A stretch of DNA of 63,185 nt, counting the filler, from Globobulimina sp. (lineage: Eukaryota): the NCBI GenBank assembly GCA_003354225.1. It is 36 parts of 36 records of this genome, joined end to end, with 100 filler letters (N's around TTAATTAATTAA, not from the genome) between each part and the next. Parts side by side here need not be neighbours in the genome. Positions count along the whole stretch, not along the records: positions 31,659 to 33,316 come from PIVH01013512.1; 35 more parts are not named here. One strand, given 5' to 3'. Below the pieces are notes generated by a model. That model ran no database searches and had not been told where the DNA came from. It worked only from the letters and a program-made list of their open reading frames with translations. This document shows, one piece after another, positions 2,276-43,861 of the stretch (position 1 is the stretch's first letter; every line of letters starts with the position of its first letter). A program made the position numbers and the translations under genes.

Positions 2276-3418
2276 TTAAATTTGACAAATTACTATTCGT
2301 GTTTCAAAAGATCCAGGATACATTTCAATAATTTCTTCATGTTTATCAAAATAATTTGAATTAAATAATAAGGGTTTCTTAATATTTGATGGCGGATTGC
2401 CATCACGAACATATAAACATTGATTATATGCATTAGATCCCCATAAATAAAATTTATTATCCGCTGTTTTAATAATATTATGATTTGAACCACATTTAAT
2501 ATCAATAATTGTTAATGTTCCATTTGGTTGTGGTAAAAACACATTTTTATTTGAACCATTACCACATTGATATAAATGATTCCTTCCAAAACAATATATC
2601 TTATTTTTTTATTATTACATATATTTGTATATGACAGACAAAACAACACAAAAAGATCAAAACTTTCTTATTTAATGATAATAATATATTATGATAATAA
2701 CCACAACATATTTTACCAATTTTAATATTGTTTTGAATAAAATATTGTATTCTTGTCGCTAAATATCTATGACTATCATCTCCATGGCCTAAACTACCAT
2801 CTCTGCCGTATCCCCATGACCAGACGACACCATAATTATCATCAATTGCTAAGGTATGCCAACATCCACAAGATATATCCTTAAATTTTATTTTTATTTG
2901 AATTTCTTGAATATTTGATGATGATTTAATACCTTTACCTAATCCTAAACCACCATAACCTACATCATAACCAGCAACATATATTTTACCATTTGTACTT
3001 AAAAATGTTGTATATTTCCCTGCTGTGGCTACTTTTTGAATCGATAATGGTGTATTAATTGGTGCCCATTTATTATTATTTTCTGTATTTGTTTTTATAC
3101 CAAATTGATTATAAGAATTCCGTCCGACAGCATATAATTTATTATCATTTGAAATACAAAATGAATGACTTGATCCATTTGGTGCTGTAAATATATTTTT
3201 TATTTTCATATCTTTTACTTGATGCCATATATTAATATTATTATAATGTCCAACACCTAATACACCCCATCCATTATAACCGCAACATTCATATGTTTCA
3301 TCATCAAATAAAATATATGTTGCTGCACCAATCCAAGCATCACCACAACTAACAATATTTTTTATTTCTTTTTCAAATGTTTTTATTTTTGTTATTTGTT
3401 TAATATCTTCATTTTTAC
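2276..3418 (-). CDS. RCC1/BLIP-II beta-propeller protein, C-terminal part, one intron (2600-2663)
   Basis: LYAVGRNSYNQFG, ISCGCWHTLAID..VWSWGYGRDGSLGHG, ICCGYYHNILL, IKCGSNHNII..FYLWGSNAYNQC; a 64-nt GT-AG intron restores the frame. Confidence 0.9.
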
Positions 3419-6040: not shown

Positions 6041-6300
6041 GAAGTTGATTTGTTTTGTTTTTGAGATTTTAAATATCAATCAAAAAAAGAGCAAATCAAC
6101 AGATATTTCAAAAAACGTTATTTATTTTGTTTGGGTTGGTTGATATTATGAGTTGCATTCATAGTAAAATCATCTCATAATTGATCACTGCAGTTAGCTA
6201 TATCGATTATGGTGTTTTAAGTTAGAATTAGTGTATAAGTTAAAAAGTGAACGCGCGGACAAAGTATGTTTTATTATTTTATATGGATATCAGCCATTTA

Positions 6301-6936
6301 TCAGGCCCATATATGTATTTCTCCCGCTTTGTTTCCGGTATAAATTTCATTTTGAACATCATTATAAAAAATCGCAGTAATGCGCTTTAATGGATTTTTA
6401 CGCGTAAAGGTATTTTGCCTCTCTTTATTAATTTGCGGCGATAAACACCATCGCGGTTTTAAGCCTATTTTATTTTCCATCATGTCGTCATCGCACATAA
6501 TCCAACCAAATAAAGCGCCGTCTTCCAATGAATTTATTTGTATAATACCTTCTTTCCGTGCATCTTTTTGTAAGTTTACAAATTTGGAATAATAAATAAT
6601 TTTTGTTTGATTCGCAGTGATAAAAATCACAGATTCGCGGTTATCCGCATCTTTTATATGTTGCTTTAATTGAAAGTCGTCGCTGGAAATCAAATCTAAC
6701 ACTCCATAATGCCCACATTTTTTGTGATTTTCTTCTTTATGTTTCTCTTCTTTTTCTGCATCTAATTTGCGATTAAATTGCAAGCTCTTATAATATAATA
6801 ATCGGTTACATCGTTTTAAAAATAAATATGCGTCGGGAATCTCAAACTGATTCACTATTTTCGGCGGCTTTTTTTTGTCGCGACACTTTTTTACACAAAA
6901 AAATAAGTTTTTATATAGAAAAATAATATAACTCAA
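6301..6936 (-). CDS. WD40-like propeller protein, C-terminal fragment
   Basis: Ends ITAIFYNDVQNEIYTGNKAGEIHIWA, like an uncharacterised plant/protist WD40-like family; IFITANQTKIIYYSK also fits. Confidence 0.65.
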   Translation of the reverse strand: MSYIIFLYKNLFFCVKKCRDKKKPPKIVNQFEIPDAYLFLKRCNRLLYYKSLQFNRKLDAEKEEKHKEENHKKCGHYGVLDLISSDDFQLKQHIKDADNRESVIFITANQTKIIYYSKFVNLQKDARKEGIIQINSLEDGALFGWIMCDDDMMENKIGLKPRWCLSPQINKERQNTFTRKNPLKRITAIFYNDVQNEIYTGNKAGEIHIWA

Positions 6937-7351
6937 NNNNNNNNNNNNNNNNNNNNNNNNNNNNNNNNNNNNNNNNNNNNTTAATTAATTAANNNNNNNN
7001 NNNNNNNNNNNNNNNNNNNNNNNNNNNNNNNNNNNNTTTACTGTTTGGTCACTGATTTTTTATGTAAACACAGTGGAGTTGGATATTGCTTTTTTGATAG
7101 ACAAAATTTGCTGTACCTTTTTGTGACACAGATTTACTTTTCACATCAACATCATATGCTTGATGTATTGTGAATGTACAGTTTGCATTCACTTTGCAAA
7201 CCCAATGCAAATATACTTTTCATAAATCATATACAAAATATTCAGTTTCGTCTCCTTTGTGATATTAAGTTTTTCTTCAAGAGTATGATTCCACCGCTTT
7301 GTGTTAAGAATGAGCAAGATGTACAATGATTAAATTATTACATTACGAGAA

Positions 7352-8695
7352 TCAGAGTGTAAAATCTTTATTAGCATATTTTTCAACATCATAAAATTGA
7401 GCCACAACAACCCTTTTTTCGAATGTCCTCCCTTGTAACGAATCTTTTGCAGATTGCGCCTGCTCACAAGCCTCAAATTCAACAAACACTTTTCCTAAAC
7501 CCGCCACAATGTCCACCGCATTCAATGCTGGTCGAGGAATCGTAATACTTTTCACAGTGCCATACTTTGAACATTCATCCTTTATATCCTCCACAATCTC
7601 CCTATACTCGTCATCATCTTTCAAATCATCATTGGTCACCATTTGCGACAATATCAACACATTTGATTTCGAATTCGTTTCAATAACTTGCATTTGCTGC
7701 AGCTGTGCCTGAGGCTGTGCTATGTTGACGTTCTGCGGTGTCTGCTGTTGTATAGTCGACGGTGTATGTCTCCTAACCGCCAACTGTCGATCTCCAATTT
7801 TAATGCCATTCAATCCCACAATGGCCGAATCAGTCACATTGGCATCCTCATACTGAAAGAAACAATAACCTTTGGACAGGCCGGTCGATTGGTCCTTGGC
7901 CAGGAAAAAAGCGCGTAACTGGCCATAAGTGGACAGCAATTCCTTCACCTGTTCCTCTGTCAAACTGTACGGTATTCCTCCACAGTACAACTTATTCGGC
8001 CCATTGGGCACAAAGTTGCTCACAATGCCCAGAGCCGACGTATTCAATTTCGGCACATTATCCGCTCGCAACTCCTGTGGCAATAAACTTGGATTGTAAT
8101 TTGCCGGTCGTCCGATTTTCAGCGACTCGCCGAAGAACTGAATGCCTTCCAACTCCATCGCCTGAGTCGCTTCTTGCGGCGAACGAAACTCTACGAACGC
8201 AAATCTACAGAGTGGCAGTGTGTTATTTTAATTATATCACAATTATAAGATATAAAAGTACCTCTTTTGCGCGTTCAGATAGACGTTGGTCACCGAGGGT
8301 TCCTGCGCCAGAGCTTCGGTCTCGTCCTTTTCGCCGTCATTGACATTGTTTGGTTTCGCTGCGATCATCGTAGCATTGAAGAACTTACGAATCTCATCTT
8401 CCGACACATTGTGCGGTAGGTTTCCGACATAGATGCGCTTACTCGCACGAGTGGCATGCATGAAATTGGCAGTTTGTTGGTTGACAGTGGTGCTTAACTC
8501 GATGTTGTTATCCATTTCGTTCATAGCTTGGATGCCTTCCATGTTGTTCTTCATATCAATGTCCATCATAGTGATAGCAGCATCCTCTGCGTCCATCGCA
8601 TTGCTCTCAATGTTGCCCATTCCGAGCACATTGCCCAAGTTCGGATTGCCAGCGCCCGCAGCCAACGCAGACAATGTGCTCGATGACAGCAAGCT
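7352..8695 (-). CDS. U2AF2: Splicing factor U2AF large subunit (RRM1-RRM2-UHM), 5' partial, intron 8205-8261
   Basis: ATRASKRIYVGNLP; KR|FAFVEFRS; LKIGRPANY; NKLYCGGIPYSLTEEQVKELL; SKGYCFFQY; DDDEYREIVEDIKDECSKYG; GLGKVFVEF. Confidence 0.95.
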
Positions 8696-8795: not shown

Positions 8796-9630
8796 AGGCA
8801 AAAAAGATTGTTGGGGCAAACGAAGAAGACGAAAAAAAGGAAATGGACGCGGTAAAAAAAGATATAGAAAAGACTGCGATGATGACGATGATTGGTGGCC
8901 AATAATTTCATCGACATGGGCCAATTTCAATGATACCTCAGAAGATTATTTCAATGACACCAATGCCACGTACATGGACACCACAGATGCCACGGACACT
9001 ACAAATGATATTAGCACTACGACTACAAGTACCACAGAAGAGGAATGTCCGCCTATCTTAGAGCTGGATCCAGCAACATCACCTTGTAAATGTTGGGAGG
9101 GTTCTTTATTGGCAAACTGTCCTATACACGACGGCCGGTGTGAAATAGTGGATGGATTATGTGAGTCGGTGGGTGTTTTTGCACCAATGCAGGCGGATGA
9201 TGGTGGAGTTGAAAGCGGTGGATTTGAAGCTGGTACACACGGTACAGTTTAGTGTTGATTTTCTTTTGTATTTTTATACGTTTTTGACGTTTGTAGTGCA
9301 CATTATTATGGATTTTGTCTTGTTTTGTATATGTAATTGATTTGTGTTTAGACGGCGAGTATTATTGGCGGTGCTATTGCAGCGGCTGTGATTATATTAT
9401 GTTTGGTGATTGGCGGTATTCTCTGTGTGCGGAAAGGTAATAAATATGACAATATTGCGGCTGTGGATGAATGTGGTGAAGGGATTGAATTTGGACAGGC
9501 AATGCCAATGGAAACGGGAGGAAGTGGAGAAACAGGAAAAACGCACACAATCATTAAATATCAAAGCAGCGATGATGAAGATGAAGATAACAATGCATTG
9601 ATTGATGGGAATAATAATTATACAAAATAG
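8796..9630 (+). CDS. Single-pass membrane protein with Thr-rich stalk and small Cys domain (partial, one intron)
   Basis: Thr-rich tract, Cys cluster, GT-AG intron about 9242-9351, TM IIGGAIAAAVIILCLVIGGILCV followed by RKG. Confidence 0.65.
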
Positions 9631-31658: not shown

Positions 31659-31968
31659 CGATTTGCGAGCTGCTTTGGACTTGACAAATAGTCGTTTCTT
31701 GACTGTCTTTGGTTTCTTGACAACCTTTCTGCTTCTTTTCTTGATAGTTTTCTTAGGAACCGACTTCCTTGAGCGTTTAGTGTTAGCCTTAGTCTTCTGC
31801 TTTCTATAACGTTTCTTCGATGAAGGAGCGGCAACAGTTGATGATGAGACAGAAGCAGTAGGAAAACGCTCAGCAGTGGAAGACAACACACCACCAAAAC
31901 CTAAACACACCTAACATACAATACAGAAACTAGAATATTTTAAGATTACCTGAATTAGCAGCAGACAT
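31659..31968 (-). CDS. Lys/Arg-rich DNA-condensing-type protein, intron 31901-31949 (3' partial)
   Basis: ATG TCT GCT GCT AAT TCA G|GTAATC...TTTAG|GT TTT GGT gives MSAANSGFGGVLSS...KKRYRKQKTKANTKRSRKSVPKKTIKKRSRKVVKKPKTVKKRLF. Confidence 0.65.
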
Positions 31969-32060
31969 GAGAACCCAACCACACACGACCTTAACAAAGT
32001 GTGTAAATGACAAATTGATCGACTGGACATCTTTTATACCCACAACTCGTCACTGATTGG

Positions 32061-32732
32061 TCAGTTTACAGGAACAAACACAGCTTGATGATCCTTCATG
32101 ATGTCAGATCTTATGCGTAGATGTTTGACATTTGTAGCTAGATCGACCAATATGTAACCATAAGGTTTCTGCATTTCAGTGTCATATGCAGATTGCAATG
32201 CACGCCTGAGCCCAATTTGACTACCCAGAATGGCCACTTGTTGCTGCATTTTAGGTGAGTTGAGAAGAAAGTAATAACCAACATTTTGGGCGATGATCCT
32301 GGATGCAGGAGTAGGTGCGAATATAATATGCCAAAACAACACCAAACTGACATTGTAATGACGAGCCACAGTGAACAAATGAGCCAACTCCTTGGAGGCA
32401 GTGGTCTGCATGGTGGCGTCGTCAATGGCCATTATGGTCTGCTTTGTGCCTGCCAAACTTTTCATTTCCTCTTCGGAGAAACTTGATGCCTGAATAAACT
32501 CTATTTCTACACCCTCTGTAGCCAGATTTCTTTTTGTTTGCATGTAGCTGTCTTGATAGCAGTTGTAAAAGAAAACTACACGGTCGGGTTTTGGATTATA
32601 GACCAGTTCAGCGTGCTCCAATGTCTTTAAAAATAGGCTAGTTTTTCCACTTTGAGTTGTCCCACAGAACAGTATATTTCTTGGAAGCTGTAACCTGGCA
32701 TCAAATTCAAACGATTGCCTCAGTGATGACAT
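32061..32732 (-). CDS. A32/FtsK-HerA family genome packaging ATPase (Polinton/adintovirus type)
   Basis: FDARLQLP; Walker A GTTQSGKT; VFFY..YQ..Y; Walker B MAIDD; arginine-finger LFT.ARHYNVS; SRII..N..Y.FL; KPYGYILVDL...LRIRSDI. Confidence 0.9.
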   Translation of the reverse strand: MSSLRQSFEFDARLQLPRNILFCGTTQSGKTSLFLKTLEHAELVYNPKPDRVVFFYNCYQDSYMQTKRNLATEGVEIEFIQASSFSEEEMKSLAGTKQTIMAIDDATMQTTASKELAHLFTVARHYNVSLVLFWHIIFAPTPASRIIAQNVGYYFLLNSPKMQQQVAILGSQIGLRRALQSAYDTEMQKPYGYILVDLATNVKHLRIRSDIMKDHQAVFVPVN

Positions 32733-32840
32733 GACGACCGCTCATTAACAGACACAATTACAAACTGATATATTATGAAGGTTAACAACTTTATACATCA
32801 TTTCCTTAAATTTACTGCTTGCTGTATGGTCGTGTCAAAA

Positions 32841-33239
32841 ATGTTGCTCACACTCAGCAATAAATTCTGTGACAGCGAGGAACGATACATTTACCCTACT
32901 CATTTTACAAACCGCACACCTTTTGTTTTGGTATTCGACGAATCAATGGCTGATGATAAACCAACCAATCATTATGTGCGTTTGGAAGCCATAGCCATCG
33001 ACCCATGGCCCAGCAAACCAGTTGTTGTCTACTGCAGTCTATGTGAACGACAACCGTTTGGAAGATTACTCGAAAAAGTTTTATCGATGACCTATGGAGA
33101 AGAAAAGTTTTCAAGACCACGAGTACAAGTTCAATAGGGCAGGAATAATGATATTGAAATTGAATTGAAAACTGTTGTCGGCGAGCCTGTTATCACTGAT
33201 ACTGTTACTGTGCAATTGTCTGTTGAGAAATTTGAATGA
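32841..33239 (+). pseudogene. Minor capsid (penton, single jelly-roll)-like gene with in-frame TAG at 33135-33137
   Basis: MLLTLSN...YP..FTN..P.VL; V.L..I; VVYCSLCERQPFG....VL; past the TAG: DIEIELKTVVGEPV...VTVQL, matching the Polinton penton layout. Confidence 0.65.
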
Positions 33240-33416
33240 TCATTTAATAAACAACTGCCTGTTAAACATTCTATACACAATAATACTAACACAACACACA
33301 ACAACAAATAATGAGTNNNNNNNNNNNNNNNNNNNNNNNNNNNNNNNNNNNNNNNNNNNNTTAATTAATTAANNNNNNNNNNNNNNNNNNNNNNNNNNNN
33401 NNNNNNNNNNNNNNNN

Positions 33417-42204: not shown

Positions 42205-43861
42205 TATTGAAAAAGAAAACAAATAGCAAGCAGCACATAAATGAAATGAAAAAAATAGAAATAAAGATATTGCAAATCGAGAAAGAGATTATGATAAAAC
42301 GGCAGATAGAATTTAAAAACAAAGCAAATGAATTATTCAAAGATAATATGTTAAAAAACTTATTCAATCATTTAAAAAATGAAGCAAATAATGATGCAAT
42401 AATTGAATATAAAAATAAAAAACTATTTACGGATATTGATATTATTGAAAATGGCACAGAATATTATTATGATTTATATAGTAAATATAAAGAATTACCG
42501 AATTATCCCAATATTAAACAAACAATCAATAAAATAATTAATGAGTCATATAATAATGATGAAGATGAAGACAATAATCCATTCCAAGAAAGTGAATATG
42601 ACATTGCATTGAAACAATGTCTAAACAGCAAAGCAGAGTCATTCGATCAGATTGGATACTATTTATTAAAACTAATGAATAAAAAGAAAGACATCAGAGA
42701 ATATAATATAAAAATGATTAATTTAATTTATATCCTATCTAAATATCCTACGAAATATCACATTGTGAAGTTGCACATGTTAATGAAGAGAAATACTGCC
42801 AAAATATATCGAGACTTCCGCACGATTACGATTGCGAGCAATAGGAAAACATTAATAAATACCATGCGAATTAATAGAATTAAAGATAAATACACATTGA
42901 ATATCCATCCTAATCATGCAGCATATCAAAAGGGACTAAGTTGTGAGATATTATCATATGCACAACAAATAAGTATTAATTATGTTGTCAATGAAAATGG
43001 ATTCGCAGTTATGAATATATCGGATTTAAATCAAGCATTCGATCATTGCAATAGGGATAAAATGATAATAAATGAAAATGAAATTAAAATCACAGGAAAG
43101 AATCTAAGATTAATAATAGATCAACTTAAAAATATGAAAGGTAGAATAGGATGGAAAGGAATGTATAGCAAATTATTGAATATAGTCAAATCAACACCGC
43201 AAGGCGATAATGGATCCGGTGATAATTGGAATTTATACACATCACCGATACTTTACCACCGATATGTTATGATATCAATATGAGCTCCAGCAAATTCTCT
43301 GATGATGGCTTAAATATTGCAAAGTCAAAAACTGCTCTTCAAAAACTAGTCAACATCGAAGAGACAGTCAGTCACAACCTCAACCTTTCAATGAATCCAA
43401 ATAAATCATTGAATATAATATATGCGAGGAATAGTAAATTAAGAGATGAAATATTGCAGCAATGCTATTTTTACAATGGAAAGTATTCAAAGCATTTACA
43501 TATAAATGGAGATCCAGTGCCAATTGCAAACGATAAGCAGGTCAAAGATGGGAAACTAAAAATATTGGGAATATGGAGAGATTTTAACAACAAATTAGAT
43601 TTTAAAATGATTCATTTTAATAAACAAATCGAAATATTTATTAATCTAAACAAAAAACTGTATCTTAGTGGAATAATTGGAGCAGAAACCACATTATCAC
43701 TACAAAAACAATTTTATGCATTAAAAATAAGGCCCGCAGTAACTTATGGAATGATAATATTAGGATTGGCACAAACACATTATAATAAATTGGATTCGGC
43801 TCAACACAAAATATTATCATCAATAATGAATAGTGGATTAAGCGCCGACGACATTACATTG
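42205..43861 (+). mobile_element. Non-LTR retrotransposon reverse transcriptase region, frameshift near 43250
   Basis: L.K......FRTITIAS; IHPNHAAYQKGLS; SDLNQAFDHCN; TPQGDNGSG..WNLY; second frame FSDD, SMNPNKS, LKILG, IRPAVTYG. Confidence 0.85.

Follow-up and report, generated by a model that had tools for sequence, protein, structure and literature searches.

A probable fragment of a Polinton/Maverick-type element with a packaging ATPase gene on a 1658-bp contig of a eukaryote assembly

Gene organization of the contig

Positions 31659-33316 of the DNA analyzed here (the window; 63,185 nt with filler, assembly GCA_003354225.1, deposited as Globobulimina sp.) hold a packaging ATPase gene, a small divergent gene and a Lys/Arg-rich gene, and are likely a fragment of a Polinton/Maverick-type double-stranded DNA (dsDNA) virus-like element (Preplasmiviricota), covering its virion-assembly (morphogenesis) module. 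The window is composed of 36 contigs of 1656-1659 bp each, sorted by length and separated by spacers made of N-runs around TTAATTAATTAA, and the region in question is exactly one whole contig of 1658 bp. Open reading frames (ORFs) that span a spacer, recognized by runs of X and the ending ...LIN, are artefacts.

The ATPase gene (32061-32732, minus strand) is intact and encodes 223 aa, which Pfam, AlphaFold, fold neighbors and family membership assign to the A32-like genome-packaging ATPases of the FtsK-HerA superfamily. A divergent intergenic region of 108 bp (32733-32840) separates it from a small ORF of 132 codons on the plus strand (32841-33239), predicted to be all-beta and a candidate vertex or minor capsid protein, which is broken by an in-frame TAG at 33135-33137. 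On the other side, a spacer of 92 bp (31969-32060, minus strand) runs from the ATPase stop codon to the ATG of the Lys/Arg-rich gene. The first-pass annotation of this DNA had the coordinates and motifs right throughout, including the 108-bp and 92-bp spacings and an ATG at 33311, and its divergent position for the plus-strand gene stands, but it overlooked the TAG within that gene.

Both spacers contain promoter-like motifs. In the 108-bp region, the minus strand has TATAAA at 32795-32790, 63 nt upstream of the ATPase ATG, and in the 92-bp spacer it has CCAAT at 32060-32056 and TATAAAA at 32038-32032, the latter 70 nt upstream of the basic-gene ATG. An AATAAA hexamer (33246-33251, plus strand) lies 6 nt past the TGA of the small ORF. 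These motifs may act as promoter and polyadenylation signals, and in AT-rich DNA they may also have arisen by chance. At the contig edge there is an ATG plus one codon (33311-33316, plus strand), with the ATG at 33311-33313, 3 nt from the end. Repeats within the contig are short and at chance level, and the contig contains no long inverted repeat, terminal repeat or host junction.

The packaging ATPase and its family

The 223-aa protein has the motifs of a packaging ATPase, i.e., Walker A GTTQSGKT at residues 24-31, Walker B IMAIDD at 100-105, an ARH motif and a PYGYILVDL...LRIR tail. D104 and D105 are invariant in alignments of 14 and 40 sequences, while G29 and K30 are so only in alignment A3, the one of 40 sequences; alignment A1 has many N-terminally truncated rows. 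Candidates for the arginine finger are R124, a conserved residue of the close clade, and R145, which is nearly invariant in 40 sequences. Pfam Pox_A32 (PF04665) matched with 27.3 bits against a cutoff of 22.8 (E = 3.2e-6), and FtsK_SpoIIIE stayed under its own cutoff. Sequence searches elsewhere gave little: the ATPase profile retrieved just two weak and irrelevant rows from the PDB sequences (E = 0.014 and 0.91), and PHROGs returned weak rows only (E = 0.025 and 0.19).

The AlphaFold model of the ATPase, built on the 40-sequence alignment, reached a predicted local distance difference test (pLDDT) score of 94.3, and its nearest folds are viral packaging ATPases. The top 10 rows of the PDB fold search were all chains of the STIV2 B204 packaging NTPase (nucleoside triphosphatase), with STIV B204 at ranks 13 and 16, and these matches had E values of 5e-7 and template modeling (TM) scores of 0.47-0.58. 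Best matches in BFVD were adenovirus IVa2, the mavirus FtsK-HerA ATPase, giant-virus A32-like ATPases, Sputnik V3 and, at rank 11 with 19% identity, an FtsK-like protein of Drosophila-associated adintovirus 3, the only named adintovirus match. Identities across the BFVD matches were 12-20%. Judged by sequence and predicted fold, the protein is an A32-like (FtsK-HerA) packaging ATPase of the Polinton/Maverick family. The call made in the first-pass annotation thereby holds, both on the Pox_A32 cutoff and in the fold comparison that had been proposed there as a check. A cellular or plasmid FtsK identity was also considered, and was ruled out by the Pfam cutoffs, family membership and fold matches.

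Membership of the family was established by sequence similarity. A word-indexed search with the ATPase recovered 15 relatives among 220 candidates at 29-95% identity, all on short contigs (Logan, ENA, NCBI), and the exact protein of the window was not in that collection. The cluster names of the relatives were just 'hypothetical protein' and 'adenylate kinase family enzyme'. An exhaustive HMMER profile search yielded 6731 proteins at E<=1e-3, 3639 at E<=1e-10 and 322 at E<=1e-30, with matches down to 1e-83. Among longer family members, Pox_A32 was found in 8 of the 10 scanned, some had a weak Adeno_IVa2 match and some carried C2H2 or FLYWCH fingers. These fusions in the classical Polinton ATPase family we take to be animal gene models. 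In one relative, P0022 (337 aa), two C2H2 zinc fingers are combined with an ATPase 41% identical to that of the window, through either a real fusion or a merged gene call.

The alignment of classical members also recovered a longer element, the IMG/VR contig L001 (12,321 bp). Its ATPase has 204 aa and is 26% identical to the window ATPase over 216 aa (E = 2e-23). The genes of L001 follow in the order of a 1157-aa ORF, the ATPase, an integrase with rve and chromodomain, a 255-aa penton-family protein, a 472-aa ORF and an adenain-like protease (Peptidase_C5). Pfam matched neither the 1157-aa nor the 472-aa ORF. As predicted from its sequence, this gene set is that of a canonical Polinton/adintovirus, in which the 1157-aa and 472-aa ORFs are only the putative polymerase and capsid protein.

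For the phylogeny, likewise proposed as a check in the first-pass annotation, a FastTree of 119 rows was built from the window ATPase, L001 and 117 of the 165 proteins P0001-P0165, leaving out 48 that fell outside 185-270 aa. The tree was midpoint-rooted and had neither a labelled outgroup nor taxon names. It divides into a clade of 33 rows with the window and a clade of 86 rows with L001, each with Shimodaira-Hasegawa-like (SH-like) support of 99. In these sequences, the tree shows that the window ATPase is not of the classical type and belongs to a separate clade, sister to the classical group and not inside it. Given this separate clade, the description of the ATPase as closest to the adintovirus type of animals was overstated. 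Pattern scans for members of the 33-row clade gave 29 and 165 pattern matches in IMG/VR, 168 and 125 in JGI metagenomes and 23 in prokaryote genome contigs, and none of them was confirmed. The longer contigs with clade members measure 22.6 kb (P0019), 7.3 kb (P0004) and 5.7 kb (P0009).

An origin of the ATPase from an insertion of a giant virus (Nucleocytoviricota), a virophage or a polinton-like virus (PLV) would account for a named Pfam match to poxvirus A32, for the many giant-virus ATPases among the BFVD neighbors, for the mostly Nucleocytoviricota clusters that the protein atlas places near the small ORF, and for a contig with no Polinton hallmark gene. We nevertheless regard it as highly improbable. 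Similarity to the Polinton family (E = 2e-23 for L001 and down to 1e-83 for the profile) far exceeds the A32 match at 3e-6, identities in BFVD are just 12-20%, and no close relative turned up in the pattern scans of IMG/VR.

The small divergent gene

The small ORF starts at a conserved ATG (32841) and meets the TAG after codon 98, beyond which the frame stays open over another 33 codons, as far as the TGA at 33237-33239. In the word-indexed search, it had one homologue among 9 candidates, P0167, which is intact at 134 aa and 75% identical. P0167 has a sense codon at the position of the TAG, and the conservation extends beyond it. Since P0167 is intact across the stop, the small gene is real and the window copy truncated or mis-assembled. 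The longest contig for P0167 is 1969 nt, which is also the longest contig for P0016, an ATPase variant 94% identical to that of the window; thus, the small ORF and the ATPase probably form a conserved gene pair.

The small gene had no Pfam match at E<=10 and no PHROG match, and AlphaFold, run on a 2-sequence alignment, gave a model of seven strands and no helices with a pLDDT of 33.3, which is unusable. To compare it with pentons, we used a profile of 27 of 62 sequences, i.e., the 255-aa protein of L001 together with 26 of the 61 proteins related to it. In hhalign, residues 63-120 of the small ORF matched penton positions 167-233 with a marginal P of 0.043 and a score of 18.1; 10 of 200 column shuffles reached that score, and the reversed profile scored 15.2. 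The match lies in the expected register, at the C-terminal strands of the penton. The N-terminal half alone gave nothing sensible against the penton profile. A by-eye match of the N-terminus to the N-terminal penton motif was dropped, as hhalign did not support it.

In the protein atlas, the clusters displayed were viral wherever taxa were recorded, and those near the small ORF were mostly Nucleocytoviricota. Four of the 30 named hits fell in clusters with PF21507, the penton family of Sputnik V18/19, which the displayed row gives for 19% of members. As the atlas recognition value of 1914 is under the reliable range, these matches are leads only.

The small ORF has, in our judgement, roughly even odds of being a penton. 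It may just as well be that the ATPase comes from a Polinton-type element and that the small gene encodes a lineage-specific accessory protein, neither penton nor capsid. The missing Pfam and PHROG matches, the low pLDDT, the shuffles that score as high, the unmatched N-terminal half, the low atlas recognition and a length of 132-134 aa against ~255 aa for classical pentons all speak for an accessory protein. A single hhalign match in the expected register, a low-confidence model that is all-beta with seven strands, a position adjoining the packaging ATPase and the viral atlas rows, with their PF21507 leads, speak for a virion protein. Of the penton-like gene in the first-pass annotation, the divergent position beside the ATPase stands, while its assignment as a penton does not follow from a pLDDT of 33, an hhalign P of 0.043 and no Pfam match.

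The basic gene

Downstream of the ATPase, a spliced gene on the minus strand was predicted from the sequence. Exon 1 (31968-31950) has 19 nt, i.e., the ATG and 16 nt encoding MSAANS-, and is followed by a spliceosomal intron of 49 nt (31949-31901; GT..AG, GTAATC...TTTAG). Exon 2 starts at 31900 and is open at the contig end (31659); its translation in the spliced model begins with GFGGVLSS... and continues into a 54-aa tail. Within the basic frame itself there is no ATG. The open-ended product of 87 aa contains 29 Lys and Arg (K+R) and 1 Asp or Glu (D+E), with 28 of the K/R among the last 54 residues, and Pfam gave no match. The spliced Lys/Arg-rich gene that had been proposed earlier is borne out in that the 49-nt intron model works exactly and the composition is as described. 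A role of the basic protein as a DNA-condensing core protein is suggested by its composition alone.

A link between basic segments and this kind of ATPase is seen elsewhere in the family. All four ATPases of one subclade (P0023, P0032, P0036 and P0067), which belongs to the wider 20-row clade of the window, have K/R-rich C-terminal tails. In these, the ATPase ORF continues in frame through an acidic or proline-rich (Pro/Glu-rich) linker into the tail, which would make them possible fusions of a packaging ATPase with a basic DNA-binding segment. With tails fused in the subclade and a separate downstream gene here, a basic segment thus appears to be repeatedly tied to this ATPase. The tails and the window protein are low-complexity sequence, for which homology cannot be shown.

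Small basic ORFs also occur in L001. Some follow its ATPase (6297-7021, plus strand). Another ORF, of 129 aa (8909-9298, plus strand), stands directly before the 472-aa ORF and has an N-terminal part that is Gly-rich and amphipathic and a C-terminus rich in Arg and Lys. They loosely recall the window basic protein in layout, and BLASTP found no similarity between them. In the available portion of the adintovirus paper, the only core protein mentioned is a protein VI-like one.

Sequence variants in public runs

Three public runs of the same sample were compared with the contig. Run X1 contains 44% of the sampled words of the contig and is the only one of the three in which they occur, while nothing in runs X2 and X3 aligned on it. 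No RNA run was listed among those containing the words. In X1, 11 contig pieces lie on the stretch at low depth, five at identities of at least 99%, one at 95-99%, three at 90-95% and two below 90%. Positions 31659-31995 have no cover in X1, and in both pieces that cover the TAG (33135-33137), it lies no more than ~30 nt from an end, in a zone for which no differences are listed. Among the listed differences, 13 of 16 in the ATPase gene are synonymous, as are three of five in the small ORF, where all five lie downstream of the TAG. The variants and the synonymous excess therefore indicate that diverged copies or strains coexist and that the ATPase is under purifying selection. At the sequence level, the variants fit a multi-copy element that may be active now or was so recently.

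A free virus, episomal or exogenous, that was co-sequenced with the eukaryote instead of being integrated in it, is an unlikely source of the contig. It would be compatible with an intact ATPase under purifying selection, with a contig lacking host junction and terminal repeat, and with a GC content of 0.40 near the top of the contig range. Pointing away from it, none of them decisively, are the stop codon that prematurely ends one of the genes in this copy, low-depth variants of a single run that range from below 90% to above 99% identity, a candidate spliceosomal intron similar in size to that of a host gene, and contigs broken to ~1.6 kb, as is seen for repeats. Most likely, the contig is a single copy of an element that resides in several copies in the nuclear genome of a unicellular eukaryote with AT-rich DNA.

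Source and host of the contig

The other contigs of the window encode actin, G-alpha, the N-terminus of VPS13, and proteins with RRM, RCC1, GH18 and fn3 domains. As these are eukaryotic proteins, the source is a fragmented eukaryote assembly, and the host is a eukaryote. Rfam had 0 matches on the whole window. The studied contig has a GC content of 0.40, near the upper end of the range of 0.26-0.43 across contigs, and the GC content at third codon positions (GC3) of the element genes is 0.36-0.43, within the host-gene range of 0.10-0.48. As a yardstick for host introns we used the RRM-protein gene (7355-8227; Pfam RRM_1, E = 1.5e-31), which is split by an AT-rich GT..AG intron of 57 nt (8261-8205, minus strand). 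Compared with this intron, the predicted 49-nt intron of the basic gene is therefore of host-like size.

Contamination from another eukaryote, such as an animal or a prey organism, is in our view very improbable as an explanation for the contig. The classical family does include C2H2/FLYWCH fusions, presumably of animal origin, and of the three runs made from this sample only X1 contains words of the contig. As opposed to this, the ATPase lies outside the classical clade, the GC3 of the element is within the host range, and the intron is in the style of the host.

Two other loci in the window were recorded. In one contig with a GC content of 0.28, two long ORFs in overlapping frames (42207-43280 and 43226-43861, plus strand) take up most of the sequence; they have no Pfam match at E<=1e-5 and look like retroelement ORFs by eye only. 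An RCC1-repeat coding sequence is near-identical on two contigs (2604-3416 and 1712-2110, both on the minus strand; common stretch NEDIKQITKIKTFEKEIKNIVSCGDAWIGAATYILFDD), with a GC3 of only 0.10, and this pair may be a duplicated gene or overlapping contig ends.

Interpretation and significance

In a Polinton/Maverick-type element, the genes of the contig could work together in virion assembly. The ATPase, going by its family, would drive the linear genome of the element into an icosahedral capsid assembled beforehand. The divergent beta-rich protein of 132-134 aa, interrupted by a premature stop in this copy, would belong to the virion as a small protein, perhaps a vertex (penton) protein of minimal size, and the Lys/Arg-rich protein encoded downstream of the ATPase would neutralize and condense the packaged DNA. 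The TATA-like boxes, the AATAAA and the one short GT..AG intron suggest that these genes may be expressed by the nuclear machinery of the host.

Several observations weigh against this interpretation. The 1658-bp contig has no major capsid protein, pPolB, integrase, protease, terminal inverted repeat or host junction. The other 35 contigs likewise yielded none of these, also in a tblastn search for which the proteins of L001 served as queries. The window ATPase falls outside the 86-row clade of L001, which is the sole element with known context. The assignment to the Polinton type is based on family membership and not on synteny. The capsid role of the small ORF depends on a marginal profile match and an unusable model, and the intron of the basic gene was predicted from sequence alone. 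The variants in X1 are equally compatible with a virus population, from which integrated copies are not separable.

Polinton-type elements of Rhizaria are already in print. In the available part of one preprint, 'rhizarian-type' Polintons are defined on DNA polymerases from Paulinella micropora and three Reticulomyxa filosa GenBank proteins (bioRxiv 10.1101/809541). A second study, as far as its available text goes, screened all public protist draft assemblies for capsid genes and reports thousands of copies in the rhizarian Paulinella; Reticulomyxa and foraminifer do not occur in its main text (PMC10120064). The lineage had been described in the first-pass annotation as one with few or no described viruses, which goes too far, as Polintons are reported from Rhizaria, including pPolB of R. 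filosa, in the accessible part of the preprint (bioRxiv 10.1101/809541). In searches of the literature on Polinton/Maverick/adintovirus elements, Rhizaria and Foraminifera, no listed paper had Foraminifera as one of its terms, and we found no description of a capsid module for a foraminiferan.

The find is an ordinary one, because integrated viruses of the Polinton kind are already known to be widespread in protists, and a 1.6-kb fragment with one securely identified gene alone changes nothing known. If the host is a foraminiferan, the contig would add capsid-module evidence, i.e., a packaging ATPase and perhaps virion proteins, to a Polinton record that there consists of polymerases only, and it would speak for these elements being, or having been, true viruses in that group. 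For mapping the diversity of small eukaryotic dsDNA viruses, the contig offers three leads: an ATPase clade apart from the classical one, a possible vertex protein of minimal size, and basic tails linked to the ATPase.

A bolder reading, which we consider tentative and rather doubtful, is that the contig samples a deep, uncharacterized sister lineage of the classical Polinton/Maverick viruses. Its marks would be an ATPase clade of 33 of the 119 rows that is absent from the IMG/VR, JGI and prokaryote pattern scans, a minimal vertex protein of 132-134 aa, an intron-bearing basic core gene that is fused to the ATPase in a sister subclade, and its own nuclear-type promoters. If true, this would be a virus line whose virion genes have become adapted to expression in the nucleus of protist hosts, rhizarian or other.

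Comparison with known systems

The STIV/STIV2 B204, adenovirus IVa2 and poxvirus A32 ATPases are like the window ATPase in fold and catalytic motifs, but their identity to it is 12-15% only. IVa2 and many A32 homologues also have extra domains, with target lengths of 344-449 aa, unlike the window ATPase. Adenoviruses have basic DNA-condensing core proteins, and their extreme Lys/Arg content resembles that of the window basic protein, a likeness in composition alone. The small ORF shares a position in the morphogenesis module and a beta-rich prediction with the Polinton penton and the Sputnik V18/19 penton (PF21507). At 132-134 aa, it is half the length of the Polinton penton (~255 aa), with no significant sequence or fold match to either.

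If the host is a foraminiferan, the contig and the 'rhizarian-type' Polintons, as presented in the available part of the preprint, would represent one kind of element from a single host group (bioRxiv 10.1101/809541). They are defined there by DNA polymerase and the contig carries no polymerase, so no link is drawn between them.

The Polinton/Maverick ATPases belong to the same HMMER family as the window ATPase, and both are ~210-230 aa long. They share the Walker A and B motifs, the columns of H125, R145 and N150, and a GY(I/L)L(V/L)D...R.R tail, while the window ATPase has NSPK/SSPR where classical Polinton ATPases have a KNPRD motif. The gene arrangement differs as well: all listed core genes of L001 are on one strand, whereas the genes of the window are divergent and have promoter-like spacers of their own.

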